Below, one piece after another: positions 4,565 through 26,200 of a DNA stretch of 64,000 nucleotides. The translations under genes and the position numbers were made by a program. This stretch comes from Corallococcus sp. EGB. Its GTDB lineage: Bacteria > Myxococcota > Myxococcia > Myxococcales > Myxococcaceae. Under the pieces are notes generated by a model. The model worked only from the letters and a program-made list of their open reading frames with translations. It was not told where the DNA came from and ran no database searches. The stretch is from assembly GCF_019968905.1 (NCBI RefSeq), contig NZ_CP079946.1, positions 5,921,356 to 5,985,355 of the forward strand, read 5' to 3'. The stretch's first letter is position 1; each line of letters begins with the position of its first letter.

Positions 4565-5416
4565 TTACTTCCCCGCGCGCTGAGCCGCCTCCAGCGTGTT
4601 CTTCATCAGCATCGCAATCGTCATCGGGCCCACGCCACCCGGCACCGGCGTGATGAACGAAGCGCGCTCCGCCGCGGCGGCGAACTCCACATCGCCGACC
4701 AGCTTCCCATCGGCCTTGCGGTTCATGCCCACGTCGATCACCACCGCGCCGGGCTTGATCCACGCGCCCTTCACCAGCTCCGGAACGCCCACCGCCACCA
4801 CCAGGATGTCCGCCTGCGCCACCTCCGACGGCAGGTCGCTCTTGCGGTGGCACACCGTCACCGTCGCGTCCTTCTGCAAGAGCATCAGCGCCTGCGGCTT
4901 GCCCACGATGTTGCTGCGGCCCACCACCACCGCGCGCTTGCCCGCCGGATTGCACCCCACCTCTTCCAACAGCCGCATCACGCCGTAGGGCGTGCACGCC
5001 CGCGTCGCCGGGCGGCCCAACAGCAGGTTGCCCGCGTTCATCGGGTGGAAGCCGTCCGCGTCCTTCTCCGGCTTCACCGCCGCGATGATGGCGTCCGCGT
5101 CGATGTGCTTGGGCAACGGCAGCTGCACCAGGATGCCGTGCACCGCCGGGTCCTCGTTCAGCCGGTGCACCAGCGCCAACAGCTCCGCCTGGGTGATGTT
5201 CTCGTCCGGGTGGTGCTCCCAGGAGTTGAAGCCCACCTCCTCGGCGGCCTTCTTCTTCCCCGTCACATAGATCTTGGACGCCGGGTCCTCCCCTACGCGC
5301 ACCACGGCGAGCCCCGGGGTGATGCCGCGCTCCGCCTTCAGGCGCGCCACCTCCTCCTTGATCTCCGCCCGTACGCGCGCCGCCACTGCCTTGCCGTCAA
5401 TCAACTGAGCCGTCAT
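4565..5416 (-). CDS. folD: bifunctional methylenetetrahydrofolate dehydrogenase / methenyl-THF cyclohydrolase
   Basis: [23 protein letters not shown]...[10 protein letters not shown]...[12 protein letters not shown]...VTVCH...[10 protein letters not shown] is a canonical FolD sequence. The ATG at 5416-5414 was confirmed in sequence. Confidence 0.93.
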
Positions 5417-5467
5417 GAGCCCCACCTTATGCAAGACTGGCCCGGCACAAGGGAGTGAACCGAAGGC

Positions 5468-6304
5468 ATGGGCGCGGGAAAAGTTCTCGGGGCGATGTTG
5501 GGTCTCATGGCCGGCCTCCTCCTCGGCGGGCCCTGGGCCATCGTGCTCGGCCTCATCGTGGGCACGGCCCTGGGGCACTACTTCGACGAACAGCACGCCA
5601 CGCCTCCGGACTTCCCGGAGTTGTTCAGCGACTTCCCCGCCACCTTCGAGCCTCCGCCCAAGCAGGCCCCCCTCTCCCAGGGCCCCGGCGAGTTCCCCAT
5701 CGTCCAGGCCCCCGATGAAGACCCGCTCGACCGGGACATCACAGCCCTCTTCGTGGACGTGGCCCGCGCCGACGGAGAGATGCGCCGCGAGGAGGTCCGA
5801 GAGGTCCGCCACTTCTTCGAGCAGGTCCTCCACGCCGACACCCACACCGTCCAGGCCGTGCGCCGTCACCTCAAGGACTTCCTCTCCCACCCCACCACCC
5901 TGGACGCCCCCGCCGCCCTCGCCTCCTGCCGGGACTCCCTGCCTTCGGGCGAACGGCTCCGCCTGTTGGACTCGCTCTATGAGATGGCCCTCGCGGACGG
6001 TCCCCTCCAGCGCTCGGAACGCGAGGCCCTGAAGCGCATGGCCGTGGGCCTGGACGTCCCGGACGCCAAGGCCCAGGCCCTGGCCGAACAACACCTGGGC
6101 GACGCCACCGCCCACTACGAGACGCTGGGCCTGCCTCCGGAGGCCACCGACGCGGAGGTGAAGAGCGCCTACCGCAAGCTCGCGGCCCGGTACCACCCGG
6201 ACAAGGCCAGCCACCTGGGCCCCCGGGCCGCCGAGCAGGCCGCCCGTCAGTTCCAGGCCGTGCGTGACGCCTACGAGGAAATCCGCAGGCTGCGCGGCCT
6301 GTAG
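5468..6304 (+). CDS. djlA: DjlA-like co-chaperone (N-terminal TM, TerB-like middle, C-terminal J domain)
   Basis: N-terminal hydrophobic segment [28 protein letters not shown]-terminal J domain [31 protein letters not shown]. Confidence 0.75.
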
Positions 6305-6328
6305 CCCGCGTTAGAAGACAGGAATCCC

Positions 6329-7036
6329 ATGAGCCAGCGTCCCCCGAAGAAGAAGGAAGCGGAGTTCCAGAACAACCCGTTCAAGTCCGCCATCAAGACG
6401 CTTCAGGATCAGCAGAAGCAGGAGAAGGAGGCCGCTGCCGCCGCCGAGGCCGCGAAGAAGAAGGCCGCCGCCGCGCCGAAGCTCGCGAAGGCCCCCAAGG
6501 CCCGCCCGGAAGACGACGACGTGGGCCTCTTCTTCGCCGCCATGGACGGCGTGAAGCAGGTGACGAACCGCGGCCAGGCCCCGCAGGTCAACCCGCGCCT
6601 GCCGGAGATCATCGACGACAACGCGGAGGCGCTCGCGCAGCTGTCCGACCTGGTCGCCGTGGACGGCCCGCTGTCCTTCACCGGCTCCGACGAGTCCTTC
6701 GAGGGCGCCTCCCCCGGAGTGGATCCCAACCTGCTGCGTTCACTGCGCCGGGGCGACTTCTCCGTGCAGGACCGGTTGGACCTCCACGGCAAGACGCAGC
6801 GCGAGGCCCAGGCCGCCGTGGAGCGCTTCCTGTCCGACAGCCGCCGCGCCAAGCGCCGCTGCGTGCTCATCGTCCACGGGCGCGGTTTGAATTCCAAGGA
6901 TCAGATCCCGGTGCTCAAGGACGCGGTGAGGGATCTGCTGTCGCAGAAGCGGCTGGAGCGCATGGTGCTGGCGTTCTGCACTGCCCGTCCGCAGGACGGC
7001 GGAGCCGGCGCGGTCTACGTCCTGCTGCGCCGATAG
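6329..7036 (+). CDS. Smr-domain protein with a Lys/Ala-rich disordered N-terminus
   Basis: C-terminal DLHGKTQREAQAAVERFLSDSRRAKRRCVLIVHGRGLNS is the Smr domain. The N-terminus KKKEAEFQ...AAKKKAAAAPKLAKAPKARPEDDD is low complexity. Confidence 0.75.
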   Translation: MSQRPPKKKEAEFQNNPFKSAIKTLQDQQKQEKEAAAAAEAAKKKAAAAPKLAKAPKARPEDDDVGLFFAAMDGVKQVTNRGQAPQVNPRLPEIIDDNAEALAQLSDLVAVDGPLSFTGSDESFEGASPGVDPNLLRSLRRGDFSVQDRLDLHGKTQREAQAAVERFLSDSRRAKRRCVLIVHGRGLNSKDQIPVLKDAVRDLLSQKRLERMVLAFCTARPQDGGAGAVYVLLRR

Positions 7037-7072
7037 CTTTACGCGTGGCCGTGGCTGTGCATACATGCCGCC

Positions 7073-8065
7073 ATGGTTCGCGACCTCATTGACCTCCACA
7101 TCCACGTGGGTGGCGCGGTGGCCCCGCACATCCTGTGGTCCATCGCCCACCAGCAGGGCTTCAAGCTCCCCGTCAAGAACTACTTCGACTTCGTCGAGCT
7201 CATCACCTCCCGCCCGGGCAAGGTGGGCAGCCTCGACGACTACCTGAAGATCCTCCACACCTGGACGGAGAAGATCCAATCCTCTCCCAGCGCCATCGAG
7301 CGCTCCGTCTACGAGGTGATTGGCAAGGAGTACCGGGGCAGCCGCGTCACGCAGATCGAGCTGCGCTTCAACCCCATGAAGCGCAACCTCTCCAGCGAGC
7401 TGGACCTGGACCACATCATCCACGCGGCGCTGCGGGGCATGGACCGGGCGGTGCTGGAGTACGGCGTGAAGGTGGGCCTCATCTTCTGCCTGGCCCGCGA
7501 GTTCGACCACAAGCTCAACAGCATCATCGTGGAGAAGGCCATCAAGTACCGCTCGCGCGGCGTGTACGGCATCGACCTGGCCGGCACCGAGCGCGACGCG
7601 ATGGAGCACAAGCCTTCCCTCGCGGAGTATGAGGACCTCTACGCCCGCGCCCGCAAGGCGGGCCTCAAGTGCACCGTGCACACCGGCGAGACGGCCGGCA
7701 CGGGCGCCAACGGCCTGATGGCGGTGGTGGAGAAGCTCAAGCCGAACCGCATCGGCCACGGCATCCGCGCGGCGTACGACGAGTCCGCGATGAAGGTGCT
7801 GCGTGAGAACAACATCACGCTGGAGCTGTGCCCCACGTCCAACATCCACACCAAGGCCGTGGAGGACCTGCAGGAGCTCAAGCACATCATGCAGACCTTC
7901 TGGGACCGCAAGGTGAAGTTCACCATCAACACGGACGGCCCCTACCTGCTGGAGACGGACATGCGGCGGGAGATTGAAATCGTCGAGTCCAATGGCCTGC
8001 TCACGACGGAGCAGGTGGACCAGGCGCTCGCGTGGGCGCGCGAGGCGTCCTTCATCCCGGGCTGA
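7073..8065 (+). CDS. adenosine deaminase family protein
   Basis: LIDLHIHVGGAV...GIDLAGTE...CTVHTGE...ELCPTSN...INTDGP are the metal-binding and catalytic motifs of the adenosine/AMP deaminase family. Confidence 0.85.
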   Translation: MVRDLIDLHIHVGGAVAPHILWSIAHQQGFKLPVKNYFDFVELITSRPGKVGSLDDYLKILHTWTEKIQSSPSAIERSVYEVIGKEYRGSRVTQIELRFNPMKRNLSSELDLDHIIHAALRGMDRAVLEYGVKVGLIFCLAREFDHKLNSIIVEKAIKYRSRGVYGIDLAGTERDAMEHKPSLAEYEDLYARARKAGLKCTVHTGETAGTGANGLMAVVEKLKPNRIGHGIRAAYDESAMKVLRENNITLELCPTSNIHTKAVEDLQELKHIMQTFWDRKVKFTINTDGPYLLETDMRREIEIVESNGLLTTEQVDQALAWAREASFIPG

Positions 8066-8068
8066 GCC

Positions 8069-9145
8069 ATGTACGGCCTGACTCGCGCACTGCTCTTCAC
8101 GCTGCCCCCGGAGCCCGCGCACCGGCTGGGCATGACGGGGCTCGCGGCCCTGGGGACGTGGAACGCCCGCTGCCGCGCCATGCGCGAGCACACGCTGCGC
8201 CGCGCCCCCATGGACCTGTCCGTGGAGCTGGCGGGGCTGAAGTTCGCCCACCCGGTGGCGCTCGCCGCCGGGTTGGACAAGGACGCGGAGGCCGTGGACG
8301 GGCTGTTCGCCTGCGGCTTCTCCGCCGTGGAGATTGGCACCGTCACGCCCAAGCCCCAGCCGGGAAACCCGAAGCCACGCCTGTTCCGCCTGCCGGAGCA
8401 CCGCGCGGTCATCAACCGCATGGGCTTCAACAACCACGGCGCGGCCACCGCGGCGGAGCGCCTCAAGGCCCGCACGTGGAAGCCCGGCCCGCTGGGCGTG
8501 AACATCGGCAAGAACAAGGACACGCCGCTGGAGCGCGCGGTGGATGACTACGTGGCCTGCGTGGACGCGCTCGCGCCGCTGGGCGACTACGTCGTCGTCA
8601 ACGCGTCCTCGCCCAACACGCCGGGCCTGCGCAAGCTGCAGGAGCCGGAGCAGCTGTCCGCGCTGCTACTCGCGGTGCGCGAGCGGATGGAGGCGGTAGC
8701 CAAGGGTACGCCGCTGTTCCTGAAGATCGCCCCGGACCTCACGCCGGAGGCCGTGGACGAGGTGGTGGACGTGGCGATGGCGCGCGGGCTGTCCGGGCTC
8801 ATCGCCACCAACACCACGCTCACCCGCCCCGTGGAGCACGTGCACGCGAAGGAGGCCGGCGGCCTGTCCGGCGCTCCCGTGCGCGAGCTGTCCAACGCCG
8901 TCATCCGCCGCGCATATCAGCGCAGCCGGGGCGCCCTGCCCCTCATCGGCGTGGGCGGCGTGTTCACCGCGCAGGACGTCTACGAGAAGCTGCGCGCGGG
9001 CGCGACCGTGGTGCAGGTGTATACGGGCTTCATCTACGAGGGCCCGGGCATGGTGGACCGCATCCTCCCGGAGCTGGGCGCCCTGCTGACCCGCGACGGC
9101 TTCGCGTCCGTGCGCAACGTGATCGGCGTGGACGCGGCCGCGTAG
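8069..9145 (+). CDS. pyrD: dihydroorotate dehydrogenase (quinone), class 2
   Basis: 358 aa. Contains LLFTLPPEPAHRL...GFSAVEIGTVTP...NIGKNKDTP...VNASSPNTPGLR...GLIATNTT...GVGGVFTAQD. Confidence 0.93.
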   Translation: MYGLTRALLFTLPPEPAHRLGMTGLAALGTWNARCRAMREHTLRRAPMDLSVELAGLKFAHPVALAAGLDKDAEAVDGLFACGFSAVEIGTVTPKPQPGNPKPRLFRLPEHRAVINRMGFNNHGAATAAERLKARTWKPGPLGVNIGKNKDTPLERAVDDYVACVDALAPLGDYVVVNASSPNTPGLRKLQEPEQLSALLLAVRERMEAVAKGTPLFLKIAPDLTPEAVDEVVDVAMARGLSGLIATNTTLTRPVEHVHAKEAGGLSGAPVRELSNAVIRRAYQRSRGALPLIGVGGVFTAQDVYEKLRAGATVVQVYTGFIYEGPGMVDRILPELGALLTRDGFASVRNVIGVDAAA

Positions 9146-9216
9146 TCGCTCACGCACGAGCCCGTTTTGCGGGGCTTGCTTGCTCTTCCACCTGCTGTCC
9201 GTGCCAGACTGGCTGG

Positions 9217-11538
9217 ATGAACCGCGTCCTCCTGCTGGCCGGACTGTTGAGCCTCGTTGCGTGCAAGGGCAACATCGGGCCAAACACCCACAACGGCGGC
9301 CCCAACAACCCAGACGGTGGGTCCAGTGGGGACCTGGGCGCCGCGTGCGTGGTGCAGTCGGTGCTCGCCAATCGCTGCGCCAGCTGTCACGGCGCGCTGC
9401 CGACCCAGGGGGCGACGATGCCGCTGCGCACCCTGCACGACATGCGGGTGAGCTCGGCGATGGATGGGACGCTCAGCAACGCCCAGCGCGCGCTCATCCG
9501 GATGCGCGACGACGCGGCTCCGATGCCGCCGGCCCCGCATGAGCGCGCGAGCGCAGCCGAACGCGCCGCGCTCGAGACCTGGATCGGGGAGGGCATGCCC
9601 CTCTGCAGTGGCACGGATGGCCCGCCCGTGACCGCCGTGGCCGAGCCCAACCTGCTCGATCAGTCCGCGCTCTTCACCTGCACCGAGGGCGTGCGCTCGG
9701 ATGCGCCGACGCGCATCCGCCGCATGAACCGGCGCGAGTTCACCCGCAACGTCGGTGGCTCGGTCGAGCGCAGCTGGACCGGGTTCAGCTTCTACGACAA
9801 CCCGCTCGATCCCAGCGCCATCGAGCAGTACAGCTCCTGGGCCACGGACGAGACGTTGGACGAGGCCACGGTGGAGCTCTTCCTGCCGGTGGTCGGCGCG
9901 GCCGCATCGCCATGGACGATGAACTACCCGGACGGCAACCGGATGGAGCGTGTCTTCACCGACAGCCGCTTCCGCTGCATGTTCGAGGACGCCAACCCGA
10001 GCGACGCCTGCAAGCGCTTCCACCTCGGCCAGATGCTCGAGTTCGGCGTCTTCTTCCGCCCGCCCACCGAGGATGAGCTCACGCGCCTCACCGCCTTCGC
10101 GACCGCGGTCATCGCGCAGGAGCCGAGCTACTCCCCACAAATCCGCGCGGAGTCCATCACGCGGATCTCCAACGCCGCGTGGATGATGACGGGCGCCATG
10201 TTCCGCCGCGAGATGGGCGGCGAGCCGGCCGACGGCCGCGTGGAGCTGACCAGCCTCGAGCTGGGCTCGCAGCTGGCCTACGCGCTGGCAGGGCGCGCGC
10301 CCTCGGCCACGCCGAGCTTCGTGTGGCCGTACTACTCCGCGCCCCGCGAGGGGCATCTGGCGGACGTGGCCCTTGCCGCGAAGGATGGCTCGCTCACGCA
10401 GGATGCGACGACCGCCGCGCTGATCACGAAGTACCTGGGCGGCGTCGACGCCAACCAGAACGGGACCCCGCGCTTCGATCTGGTGCAGGACTACAACGAG
10501 GATCAGCGCTCCAAGCGCGGGCAGTACTGGCTGGGTGACGGCGTCGCGGGCTTCTTCCGCGAGTGGCTCGGCTACGGGCATGTGTCCGCGGTGTTCAAGG
10601 AGTCCCCGGCGGCGACCTCGCGCTTCGAGCTCGAGGGGCTCGGCTACATCAGCTCGGTCTCGTACGACAACCTGCTCACCAACTTCCATCCGCTGGAGCC
10701 GACCTTCATCCAGCAGTTCGACGATCTCATCGCGCGGGTGGTCGTCGAGGATCAGGACGTGCTGGCGAACCTGCTCACCACACGCACCTTCTACGTGCCC
10801 TCCATGCAGAACGCGGCGTACGACTCGCACAAGGGCCTCTCTCACCCCTACAACGTCAGCGAGATCCTCCCGGCGACCGTCGCGGGCCGCTGGAAGACGC
10901 TGCCCGCCACCGAGCGCGCGGGCGTGCTGACCCACCCGGTGTGGCTGGCGTCGCATGGCGGCAACTTCGAGGACGATCCGTCCATCGTCCACCGCGGCAA
11001 GTGGGTGCGCGAGAACCTCCTGTGCGGCTTCGTCCCGCCGCTCAGCAGCGTGCAGGTGGCGGCCCAGGTCGGCCCTCACGCCGCCGACAAGAACGCGCGC
11101 CGCCGCCTGCAGGAGGCGACCGCCGGAGCGCAGTGTCAGGGCTGTCACCGTCTGATGGAACCCCTCGGCCTGCCCTTCGAGATCTACAACCACGCGGGCT
11201 TCCTGCGCGCGCGGGATCACTCGCCCAGCGGGGGCTGGACCACGCCGGACGGAAGCTCGACACTCACGTCGATGCCAGACCCCGCGCTGGACGGTCCGGT
11301 GCGCGACGCGGTGGAGTTGAGCGAGCGCCTGGCGACCTCGCGGCACGTGAAACGCTGCTTCGTGCGACAGGCCTTCCGCTACTTCATGGGACGCCCGGAG
11401 AACCTGAGCGACGCCTGCACGCTGACGCGGATGGAGCAGGCCTATGATCAGAACAGGGGCTCGTTCTCCAAGATGCTGACCACGCTGATGACCAGCGACA
11501 CCTGGAAGACGCGGCGTGTGCCGCAGGCAGGAGAGTGA
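9217..11538 (+). CDS. large lipoprotein of the DUF1592/DUF1595/DUF1587/DUF1588/DUF1585 (planctomycete-cytochrome-like, PSD1-type) family with two CxxCH motifs
   Basis: 773 aa. Lipobox LLSLVAC. CASCHG near the N-terminus and AQCQGCHRLMEPLG near the C-terminus. Family assignment is from the overall architecture and motif placement, without alignment. Confidence 0.6.
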   Translation: MNRVLLLAGLLSLVACKGNIGPNTHNGGPNNPDGGSSGDLGAACVVQSVLANRCASCHGALPTQGATMPLRTLHDMRVSSAMDGTLSNAQRALIRMRDDAAPMPPAPHERASAAERAALETWIGEGMPLCSGTDGPPVTAVAEPNLLDQSALFTCTEGVRSDAPTRIRRMNRREFTRNVGGSVERSWTGFSFYDNPLDPSAIEQYSSWATDETLDEATVELFLPVVGAAASPWTMNYPDGNRMERVFTDSRFRCMFEDANPSDACKRFHLGQMLEFGVFFRPPTEDELTRLTAFATAVIAQEPSYSPQIRAESITRISNAAWMMTGAMFRREMGGEPADGRVELTSLELGSQLAYALAGRAPSATPSFVWPYYSAPREGHLADVALAAKDGSLTQDATTAALITKYLGGVDANQNGTPRFDLVQDYNEDQRSKRGQYWLGDGVAGFFREWLGYGHVSAVFKESPAATSRFELEGLGYISSVSYDNLLTNFHPLEPTFIQQFDDLIARVVVEDQDVLANLLTTRTFYVPSMQNAAYDSHKGLSHPYNVSEILPATVAGRWKTLPATERAGVLTHPVWLASHGGNFEDDPSIVHRGKWVRENLLCGFVPPLSSVQVAAQVGPHAADKNARRRLQEATAGAQCQGCHRLMEPLGLPFEIYNHAGFLRARDHSPSGGWTTPDGSSTLTSMPDPALDGPVRDAVELSERLATSRHVKRCFVRQAFRYFMGRPENLSDACTLTRMEQAYDQNRGSFSKMLTTLMTSDTWKTRRVPQAGE

Positions 11539-11543
11539 TTGCC

Positions 11544-12941
11544 ATGTTCTCGCGACGAACCGTCCTGAAGGGCATGGCCGCTGGCCTCTTCGCGCCCTAC
11601 TTCCACGACGTCTACGCCCAGTCGTCAGCGTTGCCGGCGCGCCTGGTGCTGGTCCTCGAGTGCAATGGCGTCTACCCCCGCGCGCTCCTGAGCACGGGCA
11701 CCCGCGCGGCGCTGGGTGGCCGCGCCAACACCTCCGACCGCATCTTCTGGGACGCGTACAAGGACACGCCGTTGGTGCGTGAGGGCGACAATCTCGCCAG
11801 CGCGATCAGTCTCGGGCCGCTGGCGGCGTCTTCCGGCAACATCGACCTGGTGAACCGCTCCGCCGTGCTGCTGGGGCTTTCGAACCTCATCGCGGGCGGC
11901 GGGCACTCCAGCGGGACGGGCGGGTTGAGCTGCGCGGTGAACGGCGCGGGCGCGACCTTCGACGCGGTGATCGCACCTCGCCTGCGCCGGGGCGCCCCGT
12001 TCGACGTGCTGCGCCTGGGCACCAGCTCCGCGCGCGTGTCGATCGTGTACGAAACCTGCGCGCTCGGCCCCCGCAAGCCCGCGGGCATCATCGTCAACCC
12101 GTCGCTCGCGTTCGACAGCACCTTCGGCTCGCTGCTCGGCGGTTCGACGAGTGGGCGCGATCGCAAGATGCTCTTCGACTTCGCGCTGGCCGACTCGCGC
12201 AAGGCGCTGGCGGCGTTCAGCGGCAACTCCAACGAGCGGCTGAAACTGGAGCGCTACGTCTCCTCGCTCGAGTCGCTGCGCACGCGGGAGGCTCAGCTCA
12301 CAGGCATGGCGGACCGCGTGCGGCCCTACCTGCCGCCGGTGCCGAAGGACAACCCGCTGATCACCGGAGCGGGCTCGCCGCCCGACTCGCTGAAGTGGTT
12401 CGAGGCGCAGTTCCAGATCGCCACGGCGTCCCTTCTGGGGGGGCTGACGAACACGGTCGTGCTGGCGACGGGCACTTCGGGCTTCGACGTGTCCTACGGC
12501 CCGGACGTGAGCGACACCCCGCGGCACAACTTGCAGCACGGCCTGGATGCGGGGCAGAACTGGGAGAAGGTCGCCGAGGTCACCCGCCGCCACGTGCAGT
12601 TGGTGGCGAACCTGGCGAGGACGCTGGCCGCCACGCCCGAGGTTGGCGCGAGCGGCACGATGCTGGATCACACGGCGATCGTCTTCATGTCCGACAACGG
12701 CGAGCAGCACCACTCCACCTCGCGCGAGTGGCCGAAGCTCGTGGTGGGCGGCAACGCGCTGGGCCTGAAGACCGACGGGCGCACGATCGTGTACCCGAAG
12801 TACGACGCGGCCCGGAACCGGCAGGTCTCCAACCTCTTCAACACGCTCGGCCACGCGTTCGGAGACGCGGCCTTCAACACCTTCGGGCAGGAGGGCAGCA
12901 CGCGCATCGCGCCGGGGCCGCTGAGCGAGCTGTTTGGCTGA
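11544..12941 (+). CDS. DUF1552-family protein with a Tat signal, the usual partner of DUF1592-family proteins
   Basis: MFSRRTVLKGMAAGLFAP is a twin-arginine signal. GGAGAG RBS 8 nt upstream of the ATG at 11544. Ends SDNGEQHHSTSREWPKLVVGG... The start overlaps/abuts the stop of the upstream gene, which implies an operon. Confidence 0.6.
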   Translation: MFSRRTVLKGMAAGLFAPYFHDVYAQSSALPARLVLVLECNGVYPRALLSTGTRAALGGRANTSDRIFWDAYKDTPLVREGDNLASAISLGPLAASSGNIDLVNRSAVLLGLSNLIAGGGHSSGTGGLSCAVNGAGATFDAVIAPRLRRGAPFDVLRLGTSSARVSIVYETCALGPRKPAGIIVNPSLAFDSTFGSLLGGSTSGRDRKMLFDFALADSRKALAAFSGNSNERLKLERYVSSLESLRTREAQLTGMADRVRPYLPPVPKDNPLITGAGSPPDSLKWFEAQFQIATASLLGGLTNTVVLATGTSGFDVSYGPDVSDTPRHNLQHGLDAGQNWEKVAEVTRRHVQLVANLARTLAATPEVGASGTMLDHTAIVFMSDNGEQHHSTSREWPKLVVGGNALGLKTDGRTIVYPKYDAARNRQVSNLFNTLGHAFGDAAFNTFGQEGSTRIAPGPLSELFG

Positions 12942-12961
12942 GCCGTGAGAGCGGGCCGCGG

Positions 12962-13190
12962 AACCTGTCGAGGTGAAGGAGGCCGGCTGCCTGTCCGGCG
13001 CGCTCATGCGCGAGCTGTCCAACACCGTCATCCGCCGCGCGTACCAGCGCAGCAAGGGCGCCCTGCCCTTCATCGGCGTGGGCGGCGTCTTCACGGCACA
13101 GGACGTCTCCGAGGCGCTGCGCGCGGGCGCCACAGTTGTGCACGGACTTCATCTACGAGGGCCAGGGCCTGGGAAGGAGCGAGACTTCAC
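12962..13190 (+). pseudogene. degraded fragment of a pyrD 3' end (duplicated copy of roughly residues 260-335 of PyrD), out of frame at its 3' end
   Basis: Nucleotides around 12968-13185 align to 8851-9060 of pyrD at roughly 85-90% identity by eye, with a 9-nt deletion. The translation KEAGCLSGALMRELSNTVIRRAYQRSKGALPFIGVGGVFTAQDVSEALRAGATVV tracks the PyrD C-terminus and then shifts frame. Confidence 0.7.
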
Positions 13191-13284
13191 ATGATTCCAC
13201 ACTTGGAGGGTGCGGGCGGCCGTGCGACGGGGGTTGCTCGCTCCAACGCGTGCGCGGGCACGGGTGCTTGGGTATAGCGCGACC

Positions 13285-14247
13285 ATGCCCACCCTCCTCC
13301 TCAGCGCCAAGGACCTGCGCGGCCTCTACACCGTCGAGCTCGGTCTGGAAGCCGTCGAGCGTGCATTCCTGGCCCATGGCCGTGGCGACGCGCTCATGCC
13401 CCCCAAGGTGTATCTGTCCCTGCCGAAGTACGACGGCGACTTCCGCGCCATGCCCGCGTTCCTCGACGGCGCGGCTGGCGTGAAGTGGGTCAACGCCCAT
13501 CCCCAGAACCCGCGTAAGCACGGCCTGCCCACGGTGCGCGCCGTGTACGTGCTCAGTGACCCCGACACCGCGTCCCCGCTGGCCATCCTGGACGGCACGC
13601 TGCTCACCGCGTGGCGCACCGGCGCCGCGGGCGGCATCGCGTCCAAGTACCTGGCGAAGAAGCAGCCCCGTACGCTGGGGCTCGTGGGCTGCGGCGTGCA
13701 GGCGCGCGTGCTTATCGACGCGCACCGCGCCCTCTTCGGTGACCTGCAGCTGCTCCTGGCGGACGTGTCCCCGCAGGCCGCGGAGGCCCTCCAGAAGGAG
13801 AAGGGCGGCCGCGTGGTCAGCCTCCAGGAGGCCTCCGGCGCGGACATCGTCTGCTCCGCCACGCCCGCGCGCGCCCCCGTGGTCCGCCGCGAGTGGGTCC
13901 AGGCCGGCGCCCACATCAACGCCATGGGCGCGGACGCCCCCGGCAAGCAGGAGCTGGATCCGCGGCTGCTCGTCGACGGGCGCGTCTTCATCGACGACGC
14001 GGATCAGGCGCTCCACTCCGGCGAGGTGAACGTCCCGCTGCACGACGGGCTCCTCAAGCCCGAGCAGATTGCCGGAACCCTGGGCGAGGTCGTCGCGGGC
14101 CGCAAGCCCGGCCGCACCGGCACCGAGGTCACCGTCTTCGACTCCACCGGCCTCGCCGTGCAGGACGTAGCCCTGGCCCGCGCGCTCTATGACGTCGCCC
14201 TGGCCAAGGGCGCGGGCCAGCGGTTCGACCTGGTCGACGAAGGCTGA
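13285..14247 (+). CDS. ornithine cyclodeaminase / mu-crystallin family protein (Ala-DH-like NAD enzyme)
   Basis: MPTLLLSAKDLRGL...VKWVNAHPQNP...LGLVGCGVQA...TVFDSTGLAVQD is typical of the OCD/mu-crystallin family. The upstream GTG at 13210 is an alternative start. Confidence 0.8.
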   Translation: MPTLLLSAKDLRGLYTVELGLEAVERAFLAHGRGDALMPPKVYLSLPKYDGDFRAMPAFLDGAAGVKWVNAHPQNPRKHGLPTVRAVYVLSDPDTASPLAILDGTLLTAWRTGAAGGIASKYLAKKQPRTLGLVGCGVQARVLIDAHRALFGDLQLLLADVSPQAAEALQKEKGGRVVSLQEASGADIVCSATPARAPVVRREWVQAGAHINAMGADAPGKQELDPRLLVDGRVFIDDADQALHSGEVNVPLHDGLLKPEQIAGTLGEVVAGRKPGRTGTEVTVFDSTGLAVQDVALARALYDVALAKGAGQRFDLVDEG

Positions 14248-14386: not shown

Positions 14387-14815
14387 CCGGGCCGCGTGCC
14401 GACTGGCAGGGCCTCGTAAAGTCGCGGCGGATGTGAAGCGGCCCGCAGGCTCACTCCACGCCACCTTCATGTTTTCCTACCGTCCGCCCCGCGTCCCGTG
14501 AGCTCCAGGCCCCGCGCTCAGCGTCCGTTTCCTTTTCAACCCCTGCGCACCAGCGGTGATTCCAGCACCCGCCTGATCCGACCCGGCCAGGGTGGGCACG
14601 ATCACCGGTTCCGGCAACGCCCGTGGCGCCATTACCACGAACTGTTAACCAATCTCCACGAAAATCGAGCTATTCCCATCTATAACCTGCGCACACGCAG
14701 GCCCTGCGGAAGGCGCGCCGCCTCCACCCTACGAACGCGCCCGCCCCCGATTTCTTGGGGACGGGCGTGGATTATCCGGATCGGTCTGACATTTCCCGGC
14801 CCCCTGGGGCGGGTT

Positions 14816-15970
14816 TCAGCCCGGGGGAAGTCCTGCCACCTGGCGGTACAGCGCGTCATGCCGGCGCACGAGCTTCTCCAGGGACAGCTCGCGGGCGACG
14901 AAGCTCCGGGCGGCCTCGCCCATCTTCCGGGCCTCCTGGGGCTGGGACAGCAGCCGGCGGAAGGCCTGGGCCAGCTGGGCGGGCCGCTCCGGCTCCACCA
15001 CCAGCCCCCGCTCGCCATCCGCGATGAGGTCCGGGTTGCCGCCCACCCGCGTCACCACCATGGGCAGCCCCGCCGCCATGCCCTCCATCACCGCGTTGGA
15101 CATGCCCTCCGCCTTGGAGCACAGCACGCCGAACGTGGCCTGCCCGTAGACGGCCGGAACGTCCGTGCGGTGCCGCAGGAAGTGCACCCCGTCCGCCACC
15201 CCCAGCTCGTGCGCCATCTTCTCCAGCGCCGGCCGGCGCGGCCCGTCTCCCACGAACCATGCGTTCAGCCGCGTCCCCTCATGACGCAGCATGGCAAGCG
15301 CGAGGAGCACATCCTCCTGCCGCTTCACGGGGTGATTCATGTTGGCCACGTGGATGACCGTGGGCGTGCCGCCGGTGTCCGGCAGCGCGTCCTTGAGTCC
15401 TTCCGCGGCGCGGGCATCGAAGCGCGGCAGGTCCAGGCCGTTGTGGATGACGGAGATGCGCGAGGCGGGCAGCCCCTCCTCGCGCATCAGCATCTGGCGG
15501 ATGGCCTCCGCGTTGGCGACGACGTGGTCCGCCATGCGGGTCATCTGCGCGTGCAGCAGGCGGCGCGCCTTGCCCTGCCAGTGGGACAGGTCCAGCCGTC
15601 CGACGATGACCTTCGCGCCCGCGAGCTTCGCGGCCGGCACCGCGACGATGCTGGAGTAGAAGTCGTGCACGTGCACCAGTTGCACGCGCTGGCGCTTGAG
15701 CCAGCGCGCCATCCGGTGGATCTGCAACAGCGTGTTGGGCTGCGCGAGCGACCCCTTGAGCGGGAACACCTCCGGAGCGTGGCCCAGCTTCCACACCGCG
15801 CCCATCAGGGGCCCGGCGTCCTCCAGCACCGACACCTGCAACTGGTAGCTGGAGGGCAGGCCTCGCAGCAGCTCCAGCACCTGGACCTCGGTGCCGCCAA
15901 TGTGGAACGACCGGGTGAACTGCACCAGGCGGAGGGGCTCCTGCCCCACCCGCGCATCCTCACGCCGCAT
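14816..15970 (-). CDS. glycosyltransferase family 4 (GT-B fold)
   Basis: 384 aa. The C-terminal half has the GT4 motif region ...FGVLCSKAEGMSNAVMEGMAAGLPMVVTRVGGNPDLI... Confidence 0.8.
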   Translation of the reverse strand: MRREDARVGQEPLRLVQFTRSFHIGGTEVQVLELLRGLPSSYQLQVSVLEDAGPLMGAVWKLGHAPEVFPLKGSLAQPNTLLQIHRMARWLKRQRVQLVHVHDFYSSIVAVPAAKLAGAKVIVGRLDLSHWQGKARRLLHAQMTRMADHVVANAEAIRQMLMREEGLPASRISVIHNGLDLPRFDARAAEGLKDALPDTGGTPTVIHVANMNHPVKRQEDVLLALAMLRHEGTRLNAWFVGDGPRRPALEKMAHELGVADGVHFLRHRTDVPAVYGQATFGVLCSKAEGMSNAVMEGMAAGLPMVVTRVGGNPDLIADGERGLVVEPERPAQLAQAFRRLLSQPQEARKMGEAARSFVARELSLEKLVRRHDALYRQVAGLPPG

Positions 15971-17282
15971 GCCCAGACCCCTCCCACGTGGCCACCGGCG
16001 CGGGTTTCATCGCCGGCTGCCTCCCCACCGTCAGGGCGCGCTCCCGTGCCTGCGCGATGCGGTGCGCGCTCGCGGCCAGGCCGAAGAGCACGTAGCAGTG
16101 CGCGGACAGGATGTACCCCGAGAACAAGTCACAGATGAGATAGCCCGCCACCGACGCCAACAGCGCCCGCGCCAGCCAGCCCATCTCCGTGTCCGCGGAC
16201 GCAGCCGCGGCTCCGCCCACGGCGCCCCCCGAGAACACCAGGAAGCACAGGAGGCCCACCCACCCGAGCTCCCCGATGACGTCGAGGAAGATGTTGTGCG
16301 CCACGTAGGCGCGGTGCGCCTCCGGCGGCGCGTACTGGAACCACGCGTAGCGGAAGCCGCCCGCGCCCACGCCCAGCAGCGGCCGGTCCAGGCTCATGCG
16401 GCTGGCCACCTGCCACGCGTAGACGCGGCCCATGGCGGACGCGTCCTCGTGGAACGCCGCCACCGTCTCATTGCGCTCCCAGAAGCTCTTGGGCGCGAAC
16501 ACCGCGAGGCCCGCGACGAACACCGTGCCCAGCACGATGGCCTGCATGCGGCGCTTCTCACGGATGGCCCACATGGCCATGGCCACCGAGAGGCCAATGA
16601 AGCCGCCGCGCGAGTGCGACAGCACGATGGCCACCACCGCCAGCACCGCGGACACCGCGCACAGCACGCGGAACACCCACGGGGTGCTCTTGCGCGCGAG
16701 GAACGCCACCGCGAGCGGCACCACCAGCACCATGTTCATGGCCATGTGGTTGGGGTCCGCGTACACGCCGACCCAGCGCGAACGGAAGCCCTCCACCATG
16801 TTCTCGCCAACGATGTACCAGTTGATGACGCCAATGGACGTCACGATGGCGCCCAGCACCATGGCGCCGCACACCACCGCCAGCCGCCTGGGCGTGGTGA
16901 GGACGTTGACGAGCGTCAGGTAGATGGCCGTGAGCTTGAGCAGCTCCACGCCCTGGACGCGTGTCACGTCCGGGTTCACGCTCCACGCCACCGAGCAGAA
17001 CGCCAGCGACGAGAACGCCAGGAGCGCGATGCCCCGCGCGCCATCGAAGTAGATGGGCTCGGCCTTGCCGATGCGGCGCATCACCATCAGGCCCGCGGCC
17101 AGCCCGGACGTCAGCAGCGCGAGCCGCAGCGGCTCCAGCGCGGGAATCCACTCACCCGGCACGGCGTACATCACCGCCGCGAACCCCGTGAGCATGAAGA
17201 AAGCCAGTACGTCGCGACGCTTCCCCTCCGCGCCCGCTCCCATGTACGCCACCCCTTTGCTGTCGGTCGCTCGTCCCGTCAC
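15960..17282 (-). CDS. O-antigen ligase / Wzy-type polymerase family integral membrane protein
   Basis: Multi-TM protein with the Wzy_C signature VLSHSRGGFIGL and a long periplasmic loop. The start is uncertain and may be 17243. It overlaps the GT4 gene by 11 nt. Confidence 0.7.
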   Translation of the reverse strand: MTGRATDSKGVAYMGAGAEGKRRDVLAFFMLTGFAAVMYAVPGEWIPALEPLRLALLTSGLAAGLMVMRRIGKAEPIYFDGARGIALLAFSSLAFCSVAWSVNPDVTRVQGVELLKLTAIYLTLVNVLTTPRRLAVVCGAMVLGAIVTSIGVINWYIVGENMVEGFRSRWVGVYADPNHMAMNMVLVVPLAVAFLARKSTPWVFRVLCAVSAVLAVVAIVLSHSRGGFIGLSVAMAMWAIREKRRMQAIVLGTVFVAGLAVFAPKSFWERNETVAAFHEDASAMGRVYAWQVASRMSLDRPLLGVGAGGFRYAWFQYAPPEAHRAYVAHNIFLDVIGELGWVGLLCFLVFSGGAVGGAAAASADTEMGWLARALLASVAGYLICDLFSGYILSAHCYVLFGLAASAHRIAQARERALTVGRQPAMKPAPVATWEGSGHAA

Positions 17283-17442
17283 GCGCGTGCCCCTGGCCCT
17301 CGTTGCGGTTTGCGAACTGCAAACAGCTAGCGGCCCAGGGGCAAAGCAGCGCGCGTGCCAGGAACCCGCGTCGGGGATCGCCCGTATCTTCGGGCGGTTG
17401 CGGGATCGCCCGGGACCGCCGGGCGGCGCAAGGCTGAAAAAG

Positions 17443-22699: not shown

Positions 22700-23236
22700 A
22701 CAGGGTTTCCGTCCGGACGCAAGGTGCGGCGCGGCGCTTTCGACACGCACGCGCCCGCCTGGCCGCTACGGCTTATTCCAGACTGACAATTGTTACTGGG
22801 TTGCTAACGCAAAGTTGCTGTGGCCCCCCTCTTTTCAACGAAACAGTGACCTGGTTAGCATGCGCTCCCACTGAATCCGGCGCGGTGAACACCGCCGCGT
22901 TCGGCAGAGTGGGTTGGAGCGCAGCGCTTGCCGGAAACCGTTGACAGTCACGTCGCATGTGTCGCCCCGGGTTCGGGTGTGGCGCCCGGACTGTCTGGCC
23001 TGTCGAAGCGCGCTGCCCCTGCCCTGTTCGCCTCGCGCGTCACGCCTTTCGTCGCTGAGCTCCGCGCCGTCGTCCATGCGACCTCTGGCGTTGGGCAACG
23101 TTCCCTTTCGGGCTGTTGTCCACCCACGGTCCGCCATCCGTAAGGAGAGGCCCGCCCCCCGGCGGACCTCTCCTCGTGCAGTCGTCGTCCCGCAGTCCCC
23201 TCGTCCGGCAGTACATCACCCCCAAGAAGGAAGGCG

Positions 23237-26200
23237 CATGCGTCTCAGGGAAAAGCTGTTGACCAGCCTGCTGCTGGTGCCCCTCGCGGGTACCAGTGCG
23301 TGGGCCAAGGAGCGGTCGAATTACGACGCGTTCCTGGAGCAGCGGGACTCCCGCTCTCCGGCCGTGGATTCCAACACGGCCATGTCCCGCGGGCTTCGCA
23401 TCGAGCAGACCGAGCAGCGGCTCGGCGTTCCCACGTTCGCGTGGGCGACGCAGGACGGTGCGCAGTCCAAGTCCGTCATCCGCAACGGCATGACGCCGGA
23501 GAGCGCGGCGCGTGCGCACCTGCAGGCGGTGGCGGACAGCTACCGTCTGACGAGTGACGACGTCGCGGGCGCCAGCCTGCGCTCGGTGCACAACACCGGC
23601 AAGGGCGCCATCATCGCGACCTTCAACCAGTCGGTGGGTGGCATCCCCGTCTTCCGCAATGAGATCAAGGTCGTCATGGGCCAGGACCTGCGCCTGGTGG
23701 CCGTGAGCGGCTACCTGGCTCCGTCCGAGCTGGGGCTCGCAGCGCGCAGCAAGGCGCGCGCCGGCTTCAACCTGGCCGCCGCGGACGCGGTGTCCGGTGC
23801 GTTCAAGGACCTGACGGGCTCCGGCACGCAGGCCGCCTCGTTCATCAACGCGGGCACGAAGGGTGATTACACCTTCTTCGAGCTGGCGCCTTCCGCGAAG
23901 TCCGCGCTGCCGCAGGACCTGGCCACTCCGGCCCGCGCCCGGCAGGTGTTCTTCATGCTGGCCGGCAAGCTCGAGCCGGCCTGGTACGTGGAAGTGAACG
24001 CCGGTCCCAAGGCCGCGCGCTCCAGCGAGTACTACGCCTACGTGGTCTCCGCGGCCACCGGCCAGGTGCTCTTCCGCAACAACCTGACGGCGGACGTCGG
24101 CGCTGCGTTCACGTACCAGGTCTGGGCGAGCAACCAGTCCCCGTTCCTCCCGGACGACGGTCCCCAGGGCACCGACGCGACCCCGCACCCCACGGGCAAC
24201 CGCGACGGCTACCAGGCCCCGCTGAACCGCCCGCAGCAGCAGATCAGCCTGGCCAACAGCCCCTACAGCAAGAACGACCCCTGGCTGCCGGCCAACGCCA
24301 AGCAGACCACGGGTAACAACGTGGACGCGTACGCGGACCTGTCCGCGCCGGACGGCTTCCAGCCGAACAGCGCCGACATGCGCGCGGAGACGACGAGCGA
24401 CAACACCTTCGCGTACGTCTACGACACGACCAAGGCCCCGGGCTCCAGCCCGCAGCAGATCAAGGCCTCGGTGGTGAACCTGTTCTACGTGAACAACTTC
24501 CTGCACGACTGGTACTACGACTCCGGCTTCGACGAGGCCGCGGGCAACGCCCAGTCGTTCAACTTCGGCCGCGGCGGCGTGGAGGGCGACCCCATCCAGG
24601 CCCAGGCGCAGGACTACGGCGGCCGCAACAACGCGAACATGAGCACGCCGGCCGACGGTGCGTCGCCGCGCATGCAGATGTACGTGTTCGACGGCACGCC
24701 CGTGCTGTCCGTGACGGCGCCGCAGTCCCTGGCCGGGGTCTACGAGGCCACCTCCGCGAGCTTCGGTAAGCAGGCCTATGATACGACGGGAGACATCAAG
24801 AGTGCTCCCGCCGCCAACATCCTGGGCTGCAGCGCGTTCGACCCTGGTTACTTCACCGGGAAGATCGCCCTCATCGACCGCGGCACGTGCGACTTCAACG
24901 TCAAGGCGGACAACGCCCAGAAGGCGGGCGCGATCGCCACGGTCATCGTCAACAATACCTCGGGCAGCCCCCTCGCGATGGGCGGCACGAACGCGGCGGT
25001 CACCACCCCGGCCCTGATGATCACCCAGGACTCGGGCGCGGCGTGGAGGGCGGCGCTCGCCACCCAGACGCTGACCGTGAAGTTCCTGCGCGAGCCGAAC
25101 CAGGATCGCGACGGCACGCTCGACAACGGCATCATTGCGCACGAGTGGGGTCACTACATCAGCAACCGCCTCATCGGTAACTCCGCGGGCCTGACCAACA
25201 ACCAGGGCCGCTCGATGGGCGAGGGCTGGGGCGACTTCCACGCGATGCTGCTCCAGGTTCGCGCGGAGGACCAGGCCAAGCCGGGCAACGGCAACTGGCA
25301 GGGCGTCTACAGCACCGCGGGCTACGTCACCAGCGGTGGCAAGAACCAGGGCTACTACTACGGCATCCGTCGCTTCCCCTACACGACGGACATGAGCAAG
25401 AACGGCTACACGTTCAAGCACATCCAGAACTACACCGCCCTGCCGCTGGAGCTCGCCACGGCGAGCAACACCAACAACGCCGAGGTCCACAACAGCGGTG
25501 AGGTGTGGGCCACGACGCTGTGGGAGTGCTACGCCAACCTGCTGAACGCGCACCCGTTCTCCGAGGCGCAGGACCGCATGAAGCGGTACCTCATCGCGGC
25601 CTACAAGGCGACGCCGAACGCTCCTACCTACACGGAGGCGCGCGACGCGCTGCTGGCCGTCACGCTGGCTGCGGATCCCGCGGACTACCAGCGCTTCGTC
25701 GCGGCCTTCGCCAAGCGCGGCATGGGCTTTGGAGCCAAGTCGCCGGACCGCAACACGTTCGACCACATCGGCGTGACGGAGAGCTTCGCGGCGGGCGGCA
25801 ACCTGGAGGTCACCAGCATCGCGCTGACCGACACCCAGGGCGGCTGCGACCAGGACGGCATCCTGGACATCGGCGAGCAGGGTGAGCTGAAGATCACCGT
25901 GCGCAACGTGGGCGGCACCGGGCTGAGCGCCTTCACGGGCACTGTCAGCACCACCAGCACCACGGCCACCCTGCAGTTCCCCGCGGGGACCATCGTCTCC
26001 GTGCCGGCCCTGTCGCGCGGCGCCGAGGCCACCGTCACCCTGCCGGTCAACCTCACCGCGACGTCCAATGCGGTGGCGACCGCGGGCCTGAAGGTCGTCT
26101 TCGACTCCAACGAGATCCCCACGTCGGCGAAGACGGTGACGTTCGATCCTCGCGTCAACTACGACAACGTCCCGGTGGCCTCCAACACGGAGACCTTCGA

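Follow-up and report, generated by a model that had tools for sequence, protein, structure and literature searches.

The stretch of DNA analysed here (the window) comprises 64,000 nt of the Corallococcus sp. EGB chromosome NZ_CP079946.1 (GCF_019968905.1; positions 5,921,356 to 5,985,355), and all coordinates below refer to the window. It contains a two-gene cassette that lies between an intact pyrD gene and a decayed copy of the 3′ part of pyrD. The first cassette gene (9217..11538, + strand) encodes a 773-aa lipoprotein with the two CxxCH motifs of a two-haem c-type cytochrome, and the second gene (11544..12941, + strand) encodes a 465-aa DUF1552 (HXXSHH) protein that is exported via the twin-arginine translocation (Tat) pathway. 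The two genes constitute a self-contained envelope module of a haem-motif lipoprotein and a Tat-exported DUF1552 protein. The DUF1552 gene immediately follows a PSCyt3-type gene in the window and in all 12 of the other loci examined. The neighbouring genes are wholly different from locus to locus, and thus no third gene is conserved. Both EGB proteins contain every residue that is invariant among their homologues, and dN/dS (the ratio of nonsynonymous to synonymous divergence) against close copies is 0.17-0.35. The EGB pair therefore looks functional.

The module is a known but uncharacterised family pair. As an earlier note on this DNA had stated, pairs of a cytochrome gene and a DUF1552 gene are known from Planctomycetes, and they are also found in Verrucomicrobia, with their function unknown in the literature (PMC5615132). 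The label "PSD1-type" that the note attached to the pair was mistaken, given that it denotes the PSCyt2/PSD1 pair, which has a different partner family, whereas the pair described here is of the PSCyt3 type (PMC5615132). He et al. 2017 (PMC5615132) distinguish the genes encoding PSCyt2 from those encoding PSCyt3, each kind having a separate uncharacterised gene family beside it, and describe this adjacency as usual for the PSCyt3 genes.

The cytochrome lipoprotein and its DUF1552 partner

The 773-aa protein is identical to WP_223633945.1 of Corallococcus sp. EGB. Its N-terminus, MNRVLLLAGLLSLVAC-K, contains the lipobox LVAC (nt 9253-9264) with Cys16. The first haem motif, C54ASCH58 (nt 9376-9390), is located in an N-terminal class-I-like cytochrome c domain, and the second, C640QGCH644 (nt 11134-11148), is located in the PSCyt3 domain. 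The open reading frame (ORF), its reading as a lipoprotein and the CASCH and CQGCH motifs are thus as the earlier note had given them, and both motifs are conserved. The N-terminal CxxCH is present in all full-length homologues, is followed by a conserved PMPP and is accompanied by the lipobox Cys, which is also kept. C640, C643 and H644 are at least 90% conserved among the homologues, and in the close family the second motif extends to C-Q-G-C-H-x-L-M-N-P-L-G-x-P-F-E-x-Y-N-H-A-G. This close family is mostly myxobacterial, as judged from the named matches, and shares 38-66% identity with the EGB protein, except for the closest two members (78% and 93%). A phmmer search against 1.84 billion representative sequences retrieved 10,205 relatives with E-values of up to 1e-3, of which 302 reach E ≤ 1e-30.

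Pfam profiles identify PSCyt3/DUF1588 (PF07627; 79.3 bits against a cut-off of 27) at residues 567-666, PSD2/DUF1585 (PF07624; 56.4 bits, cut-off 25.8) at residues 695-762 and Cytochrom_C (24.3 bits, cut-off 21.3) in the N-terminal domain. PSD4/DUF1592 stays under its threshold (12.2 bits against 23.3; E 0.27), and neither PSD5/DUF1595 nor PSD3/DUF1587 is matched in the 773-aa protein. Among 37 members of the cytochrome family, weak matches are found to PSD4 in 13, to PSD5 in four and to DUF1800 in four (best E 0.0024). DUF1549, DUF1553 and DUF1501 give no match here even at E ≤ 10. The domains PSCyt1, PSD5/DUF1595, PSD4/DUF1592, PSCyt3 and PSD2 are found in that order in nine distant multi-domain relatives, and an hhalign comparison of the window family profile with the canonical profile of these nine relatives aligns 637 columns over query residues 40-770 with a probability of 100% and an E-value of 9.2e-98. 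By this profile-profile alignment, through which alone its membership is visible, the 773-aa protein is a divergent full-length member of the DUF1592-type architecture, although its middle part lies under the Pfam thresholds. The DUF1592-family assignment in the earlier note is thus upheld by the DUF1588 and DUF1585 matches and by the full-length alignment, but the DUF1592, DUF1595 and DUF1587 models do not contribute to it.

The helical body between the two haem motifs is without a solved structural relative. PDB sequence searches with both family profiles found nothing significant, and NCBIfam has no family for either the 773-aa or the DUF1552 protein. ARAGORN called a tRNA-Gly(GCC) within the cytochrome gene, at 9895-9969 (- strand), but Rfam found nothing there at E ≤ 1, and the call is most probably spurious.

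The partner protein matches DUF1552/HXXSHH (PF07586) with 85.2 bits (cut-off 30), as do all 46 of its aligned homologues. It begins with MFSRRTVLKG (SRRTVLK at nt 11550-11570), followed by a hydrophobic stretch and VYA-Q. The arginine pair R4 and R5 is invariant in 46 of the 46 homologues, which bears out the previous description as a Tat-signal DUF1552 protein; the Pfam TAT_signal model itself is under threshold (14.2 against 22.7). The overlap of stop and start codons that had also been described is doubtful. The alternative start GTG 11535 overlaps the TGA of the cytochrome gene and is located only 1 nt past the GGAG at 11530-11533. ATG 11544 has a 10-nt spacing from the same GGAG, and the DUF1552 homologues are 465 aa long and start 5 nt past the cytochrome stop codon. 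Based on the spacing and the homologue length, the start is taken as ATG 11544 with a 5-nt gap, and the two genes are probably tightly linked without overlapping.

An AlphaFold2 model of the DUF1552 protein (mean predicted local distance difference test score of 87.3) yielded weak Foldseek matches only, all of which belong to the alkaline-phosphatase superfamily. Structurally, DUF1552 comes closest to sulfatases, PafA and phosphoethanolamine transferases, at 8-15% identity. The model thus assigns DUF1552 an alkaline-phosphatase/sulfatase-superfamily core fold that is predicted to lie outside every characterised branch. E39 and N41, with which strand 1 ends, are invariant in the 46 homologues, as are G119-G120-H121, D140, R157, C172, H328, H332, D384, H389-H390 and N425-R426-Q427. 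H121 belongs to a GGGHS loop, D384-N385..H389-H390 follows the strand formed by residues 377-383, and the sole invariant Cys of the family resides in C-A-(L/F)-G-P. Furthermore, IVFMSDNGEQHH aligns locally with the sulfatase metal motif IVFMSDNG, with an E-value of ~0.7 that is not significant alone. The invariant Glu/Asn, His and Asp-Asn..His-His residues are candidate metal ligands, as they occupy the superfamily metal-binding positions in the sequence. The formylglycine motif C/S-x-P-x-R is absent from the DUF1552 sequence, and matches to the Pfam Sulfatase family, which were found in three of the 46 homologues, are not significant (best E 0.14).

A 3.8-kb mobile unit and its junctions at pyrD

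A 3.8-kb segment that covers the cassette (9158 to ~12981) is 93-96% identical in at least six genomic settings, namely the window, Corallococcus sp. AB004, Corallococcus CP114039, C. carmarthensis, several Myxococcus (L082-L085) and C. interemptor. Five of the six settings are mutually wholly different, and C. interemptor shares the pyrD side of the window and differs downstream only. In all six settings, the left end is identical to the nucleotide, at (CT)GAGCCC, 59 nt before the ATG, which delimits a conserved 59-nt leader (9158..9216, + strand). The right end is ragged and lies from +2 to +40 nt past the stop codon. The 3′ tail of the EGB cassette (12942..12981, + strand) is common up to +40 with the AB004 copy alone, up to +19 with C. 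carmarthensis and up to ~+15 with the L082-type Myxococcus copies.

Between EGB and Myxococcus, synonymous divergence (dS) is 0.15-0.21 for the cassette versus 0.40-0.49 for pyrD and ada (the adenosine deaminase gene upstream of pyrD), and nonsynonymous divergence (dN) is 0.03-0.04 versus 0.08-0.16. For M. llanfair...gogogochensis AM401, the cassette and housekeeping dS values come from one genome. The cassette is thus far less diverged between genera than housekeeping genes, which argues that it moves horizontally, and this difference in divergence indicates that the unit crossed genus boundaries after the genera split.

The unit contains no recombinase, as only the two genes lie between its boundaries. 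Its sole terminal similarity is a 7-nt CTGAGCC that occurs once at the left end and once spanning the DUF1552 stop codon, and the left copies of EGB and C. interemptor are without the leading CT. Inverted or other terminal repeats were not found, the other cassette contexts show no flanking repeats, and plasmid and phage collections contain no cassette match. Exact 23- and 26-mers spanning the two EGB junctions are absent from the Joint Genome Institute (JGI) metagenomes.

Three candidate features of the unit or its surroundings were rejected. A terminator-like hairpin at 9157-9178 has a z-score of -0.48 against shuffled sequence and is not conserved in other contexts. A sigma-54 promoter proposed by eye from TGGCAG..TTGCT in the leader of other copies has the wrong spacing, and EGB is without the motif. 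The DUF1993 genes located by two cassette copies share only 26% identity and do not represent a shared context.

The intact pyrD gene (8069..9145, + strand) encodes a quinone-dependent dihydroorotate dehydrogenase (Pfam DHO_dh, 291 bits) that is identical to WP_223633943.1 of Corallococcus sp. EGB. In blastn alignments, its homology to relatives stops at 9135/9136, after ..GVDA. There begins a 22-nt junction filler, GGCCGCGTAGTCGCTCACGCAC (9136..9157, + strand), which gives pyrD a new tail and stop codon, and the last pyrD codons of EGB (..GVDA-AA*) are junction-derived. Beyond 9135, pyrD tails vary among species and include AAA*, R*, REGTPT* and HTGTPAVPV*. The filler is followed by the cassette with its +40 tail, and the tail ends in the microhomology GTGAA(G/C)GAG with pyrD codons 259-261.

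The decayed copy of pyrD begins at this joint, at codon 259. It extends from 12975 to 13172 (+ strand), covers pyrD codons ~259-328 and, with a deletion of 8 bp, aligns with 8848-9053 of the intact gene at 86% identity. Its translation matches PyrD 259-312 over 54 residues (81% identity, E 3e-27) before a frameshift leads to a stop codon, and the copy is non-functional. There are 23 differences between the relic and the EGB pyrD, of which 16 (10 of them GC to AT) fall on the relic branch and three on the functional-gene branch, and this excess fits a neutral, fairly old copy. The relic is followed by ~42 nt without any alignment (13173..13214), in place of pyrD codons 329-358 and the beginning of the spacer, then by a remnant of the ancestral pyrD-ocd spacer (13215..13284, + strand) that can be aligned, TTGGGTATAGCG included, with the spacers of C. 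llansteffanensis and C. sicarius, and finally by ocd. The ocd gene (13285..14247, ATG 13285, + strand) belongs to the ornithine cyclodeaminase/mu-crystallin family, is the native downstream neighbour of pyrD in the lineage and lies outside the cassette. The decayed piece thus sits exactly where the ancestral pyrD end and spacer are expected, and the relic and ocd are collinear with the pyrD-ocd region of C. sicarius in blastn. The arrangement of an intact pyrD upstream and a decayed 3′ copy downstream is as previously noted. The G+C content is ~70% across the region, and the cassette makes no compositional break with its flanks.

Two smaller observations concern this interval. The unalignable segment at 13173-13214 has a lower G+C content, aligns with nothing among the sequences fetched and may be the footprint of a further event. 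TTGGGTATAGCG, within the interval 13270-13287, ends 4 nt before the ocd ATG with no Shine-Dalgarno sequence between them and is conserved in C. sicarius and C. llansteffanensis, and it may be a -10-like element that gives a leaderless ocd mRNA.

The cassette is absent within 10 kb of pyrD in all 80 loci from species-representative genomes, all other genera included. C. sicarius and C. llansteffanensis exhibit the empty site, with ocd directly after pyrD. These observations support the view in the earlier note that the cassette is an insertion beside pyrD. The arrangement is not private to EGB, as C. interemptor shares the pyrD junction. Corallococcus genomes display three configurations downstream of pyrD: ocd in C. 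sicarius, C. llansteffanensis, C. coralloides (after a 660-bp gap) and EGB; ELWxxDGT-repeat proteins in C. aberystwythensis, C. praedator, C. terminator and C. interemptor; and a SitA6 cargo in C. exiguus. In C. coralloides KYC2213 (L001:11090-11710), the ~660 bp between pyrD and ocd are unassigned sequence and compare with a spacer of ~40-140 bp in C. sicarius and C. llansteffanensis, and this gap may be another scar at the pyrD-tail site.

In C. interemptor (GCA_050270115.1; L091), the sequence corresponding to 4566-12943 of the window is collinear with it and 94.6% identical. The pyrD-cassette region there (L091:8001-13004) has the filler and the pyrD tail of EGB. Past the DUF1552 stop codon, it continues with a pyrD-tail remnant, a spacer and an ELW gene, in the manner of the empty C. 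aberystwythensis site, and contains neither the relic nor ocd. EGB and C. interemptor thus share the left junction and differ in the right junction, which suggests that the left junction is older or was transferred between lineages and that the right junctions were made separately. Over the housekeeping region 4566-9135, EGB is 95.0% identical to C. interemptor and 94.8% identical to C. coralloides, and C. exiguus and C. coralloides share 96.6% identity. Given these distances, EGB and C. interemptor are not obviously sister lineages.

In C. exiguus (L092:9074-11107 and L093:3246-5279), pyrD ends with GVDAR*, and the junction is located 4 nt from that of EGB. The cargo is a 1.6-kb minus-strand pair of a DUF2380 gene and a double-CXXCG gene, which corresponds to the SitA6 lipoprotein toxin and its immunity protein (PMC12077181). 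Past the cargo, the terminal 444 bp of pyrD occur a second time, in frame, with 98% identity to the resident gene and with the ancestral tail REGMPA* retained. The duplications begin at different pyrD codons, at ~259 in EGB and at ~210 in C. exiguus. Two different cargos within 4 nt of each other, each with an intact pyrD upstream and a 5′-truncated copy downstream, identify the pyrD tail as a recurrent capture site, and the pyrD duplication in EGB is part of this recurrent pattern.

Upstream of pyrD, the + strand carries a Smr-domain gene (6329-7036) and ada (7073-8065). Past ocd, a GT4 glycosyltransferase gene (14816-15970) and a Wzy_C/O-antigen-ligase-like gene (15960-17282) lie on the - strand, each with a G+C content at third codon positions (GC3) of 0.94. 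The long + strand ORFs at 14498-17330 (546 aa and 479 aa) were rejected as shadow ORFs, with a GC3 of 0.67-0.72 against 0.94 on the opposite strand. The true genes after ocd are thus on the minus strand, and pyrD and the glycosyltransferase gene are convergently transcribed. The whole interval between them is variable among relatives. Farther downstream, 22914-28355 (+ strand) encodes a protein of the secreted type (1813 aa) that combines an M36 fungalysin metallopeptidase domain with a PA domain, five K319L-like PKD domains and a C-terminal Sde0182_C cellulose-binding-protein domain. Such a protein is notable in a fungus-preying myxobacterium.

Proposed function and history of the pair

We propose that the pair is an envelope module that functions as a haem-coupled metalloenzyme, moves horizontally as a unit and was installed in EGB by recombination anchored in pyrD. 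As the best explanation of the data as a whole, this reading has a probability of roughly 55%. The cytochrome would be held on the periplasmic face of the inner membrane, and DUF1552 would load its metal in the cytoplasm and be exported in the folded state via Tat. The two proteins would then act jointly, with the haems moving electrons to or from the metal centre or a substrate, and the pair would operate as a periplasmic haem-coupled metalloenzyme rather than as a plain hydrolase. In an ancestor of Corallococcus, the unit may have landed in the non-conserved tail of pyrD, which lies in a variable gap between two convergent conserved blocks, smr-ada-pyrD and the minus-strand glycosyltransferase gene. 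In the EGB lineage, a pyrD-linked cassette would subsequently have been installed into a pyrD-ocd background by recombination anchored in pyrD homology. Either a circularised fragment integrated by a single crossover, or the event was a homology-facilitated illegitimate recombination. The joint at the right end would have formed at the GTGAA(G/C)GAG microhomology and the 3′ part of pyrD would thereby have been duplicated, after which the upstream copy would have stayed functional and the downstream copy decayed. An intact pyrD accompanied by a truncated copy is the product expected when DNA that contains the pyrD 3′ part plus cargo recombines with the chromosome, be it through one crossover in pyrD or through homology on one side and an illegitimate joint on the other.

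Several points weigh against this proposal. On the functional side, nothing is known about the function of PSCyt3-encoding genes or of the gene family that neighbours them (He et al. 2017, PMC5615132). The equivalence of the DUF1552 residues with the alkaline-phosphatase-superfamily sites derives from where they lie in the sequence and from a local alignment that is weak (E 0.7). Lys at position +2 is associated with inner-membrane lipoproteins in Myxococcus xanthus (PMC3222651), but it is confined to this clade and is replaced by Thr in most homologues, and the membrane location may therefore vary. On the historical side, the left end of the unit is nucleotide-exact in many contexts despite the lack of a recombinase and of terminal repeats. 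In most segments of 300 nt, the EGB cassette resembles the AB004 copy more closely than that of C. interemptor, which is unexpected under a simple vertical history. In addition, the order of events at pyrD is a reconstruction from sequence, and a one-step replicative insertion with duplication would yield an identical end product.

The main rival on function is a plain hydrolase with a non-redox partner. DUF1552 would be a phospho- or sulfo-ester hydrolase dedicated to nutrient scavenging, in line with other phosphatases exported via Tat, and the large protein would be its anchor, substrate-binding partner or sensor, with structural or regulatory haems. The nearest structural neighbours of DUF1552 are indeed hydrolases and transferases of the alkaline-phosphatase superfamily, DUF1552 keeps an SDNG-type metal motif, and the weak DUF1800 matches in the cytochrome family would fit as well, given that we take DUF1800 to be a haem-free protein that pairs with a Tat-exported DUF1501. 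However, the conservation of two CxxCH motifs throughout the family, distant canonical members included, is hard to explain without a redox role, and DUF1552 has neither the C/S-x-P-x-R motif nor a significant Sulfatase match. We consider the hydrolase explanation rather unlikely, though less so than the other alternatives.

With regard to history, the cassette could have arrived at pyrD in one step if a replication fork collapsed or a break arose in the pyrD tail and microhomology-mediated replicative repair switched template into foreign DNA and back to codon 259. The insertion and its flanking duplication would then have formed at once, without a circular intermediate or a transfer anchored in pyrD. 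The microhomology at the right joint agrees with such a switch, the lack of recombinase genes at either cargo is compatible with it, and two independent cargos no more than 4 nt apart, both flanked by pyrD duplications, would fit a fragile site. A one-step origin nevertheless does not readily account for EGB and C. interemptor, which share the left junction and the 22-nt filler and yet differ in their right junctions and downstream genes, and we regard it as unlikely.

The proposal of a haem-coupled module installed through pyrD homology could be extended into a more ambitious claim, which we consider speculative and quite unlikely. The pair would represent a new class of periplasmic enzyme, in which an alkaline-phosphatase-superfamily metal centre is wired to c-type haems for redox-driven, and not purely hydrolytic, chemistry on ester-type or other substrates. 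As a 3.8-kb unit that needs no recombinase of its own and keeps its left end exact to the nucleotide, it would also spread among the chromosomes of myxobacteria, captured through anchoring in conserved genes such as pyrD.

The two cargos might instead be remnants of integrase-mediated islands that use the 3′ end of pyrD as their attachment site and supply a substitute for it, with the pyrD pieces corresponding to attL and attR. Islands classically leave the intact gene at one border and a 3′ fragment of it at the other, and the presence of two different cargos 4 nt apart, one of which is a SitA6 toxin-immunity pair, also speaks for this origin. However, the 3.8-kb and 1.6-kb inserts are each fully filled by two genes with no integrase, and the long repeats start from different pyrD codons (~259 and ~210), contrary to a fixed attachment core. 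Neither a phage or plasmid collection match nor Rfam support for the ARAGORN tRNA call in the cytochrome gene lends substance to an island, and this origin is decidedly improbable.

Finally, an ancestral pyrD-cassette-ocd order from which the relatives lost the cassette is highly improbable: decay of the relic on its own branch (~8%) exceeds the synonymous divergence that separates EGB from its nearest relatives (~0.065 per branch), so that the arrangement is not very recent, and C. interemptor shares the pyrD-cassette junction, but at a GC3 of 96% synonymous sites are constrained and a pseudogene can therefore outrun dS, the cassette occurs at 93-96% identity in at least five other unrelated contexts and is absent from 80 pyrD loci including those of all other genera, the duplicated pyrD piece is itself an insertion scar, and the inter-genus dS of the cassette is far under that of housekeeping genes.

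Comparison with known systems

In bacteria of soil and water, PSCyt3/DUF1552 pairs rank with the more abundant protein pairs whose function is unknown, and the cytochrome alone accounts for ~10,000 cluster representatives. Myxococcus and Corallococcus are genetically tractable and possess a compact two-gene version, which makes them a practical place to learn the role of the pair. The predicted fold of DUF1552 narrows the hypotheses to a metal-dependent enzyme of the alkaline-phosphatase superfamily with a dihaem partner. For the periplasmic redox or binding module suggested in the earlier note, this fold is the one piece of functional evidence added here. Moreover, the pyrD tail is a recurrent landing site in Corallococcus, for this pair and for the SitA6 kin-discrimination toxin pair, with a duplicated pyrD end each time, and these captures bear on how accessory genes move among myxobacteria without obvious mobile-element machinery.

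At the pyrD locus, the closest parallels are Campbell-type single-crossover integration and the homology-facilitated illegitimate recombination of naturally transformable bacteria. As in those routes, pyrD homology anchors one side, microhomology joins the other, and the homologous segment is duplicated around foreign DNA. Unlike those routes, the EGB case is deduced from end products alone.

As a gene pair, the cassette can be compared with several systems. The PSCyt1-PSCyt2-PSD1 (DUF1549/DUF1553) pairs likewise place a large protein with cytochrome motifs beside a conserved uncharacterised gene family, but they belong to different Pfam families, and DUF1549, DUF1553 and DUF1501 are not matched here. 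The partner in the PSCyt2/PSD1 pairs is presumably a Tat-exported DUF1501 protein. The DUF1800 and DUF1501 pairs consist of a haem-free helical protein and a Tat-exported sulfatase-like protein. The pair described here resembles them in the weak DUF1800 matches (four of 37) and in a Tat-signal partner with a predicted alkaline-phosphatase-superfamily fold, and we know of no DUF1800 protein with CxxCH motifs. Compared with S1 sulfatases, PafA/NPP phosphatases and MCR-1/EptA, DUF1552 shows 8-15% identity, no formylglycine motif and no significant sequence match. DUF1552 is further set apart from the alkaline-phosphatase superfamily by its invariant His set (H121, H328, H332, H389 and H390) and its obligatory cytochrome partner gene.

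A loose precedent for an electron-donor role, which serves as a lead only, is provided by Cbp2D of Cellvibrio japonicus, a DUF1587-containing protein whose cytochrome domain CjX183 reduces lytic polysaccharide monooxygenase in vitro (PMC8981238). Cbp2D is similarly an extracytoplasmic multidomain protein with single-CxxCH cytochrome domains. It differs in its CBM2, YceI-like and FN3 domains, with no PSCyt3 or PSD2 reported and no DUF1552 partner known.

The nearest relatives of the cassette are the PSCyt3 and DUF1552 pairs of Planctomycetes and Verrucomicrobia, with which it shares full-length homology, the domain order, the PSCyt3 CxxCH motif and a DUF1552 gene downstream. Unlike these canonical pairs, the myxobacterial clade has a lipoprotein whose middle part lies under the Pfam thresholds and is exchanged between genera as a discrete unit. 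Thus, to this known family pair, the present analysis adds the predicted fold of DUF1552, the full-length homology to the canonical proteins, evidence for a discrete horizontally moving unit and a recurrent capture site in the pyrD tail with its characteristic pyrD duplication.

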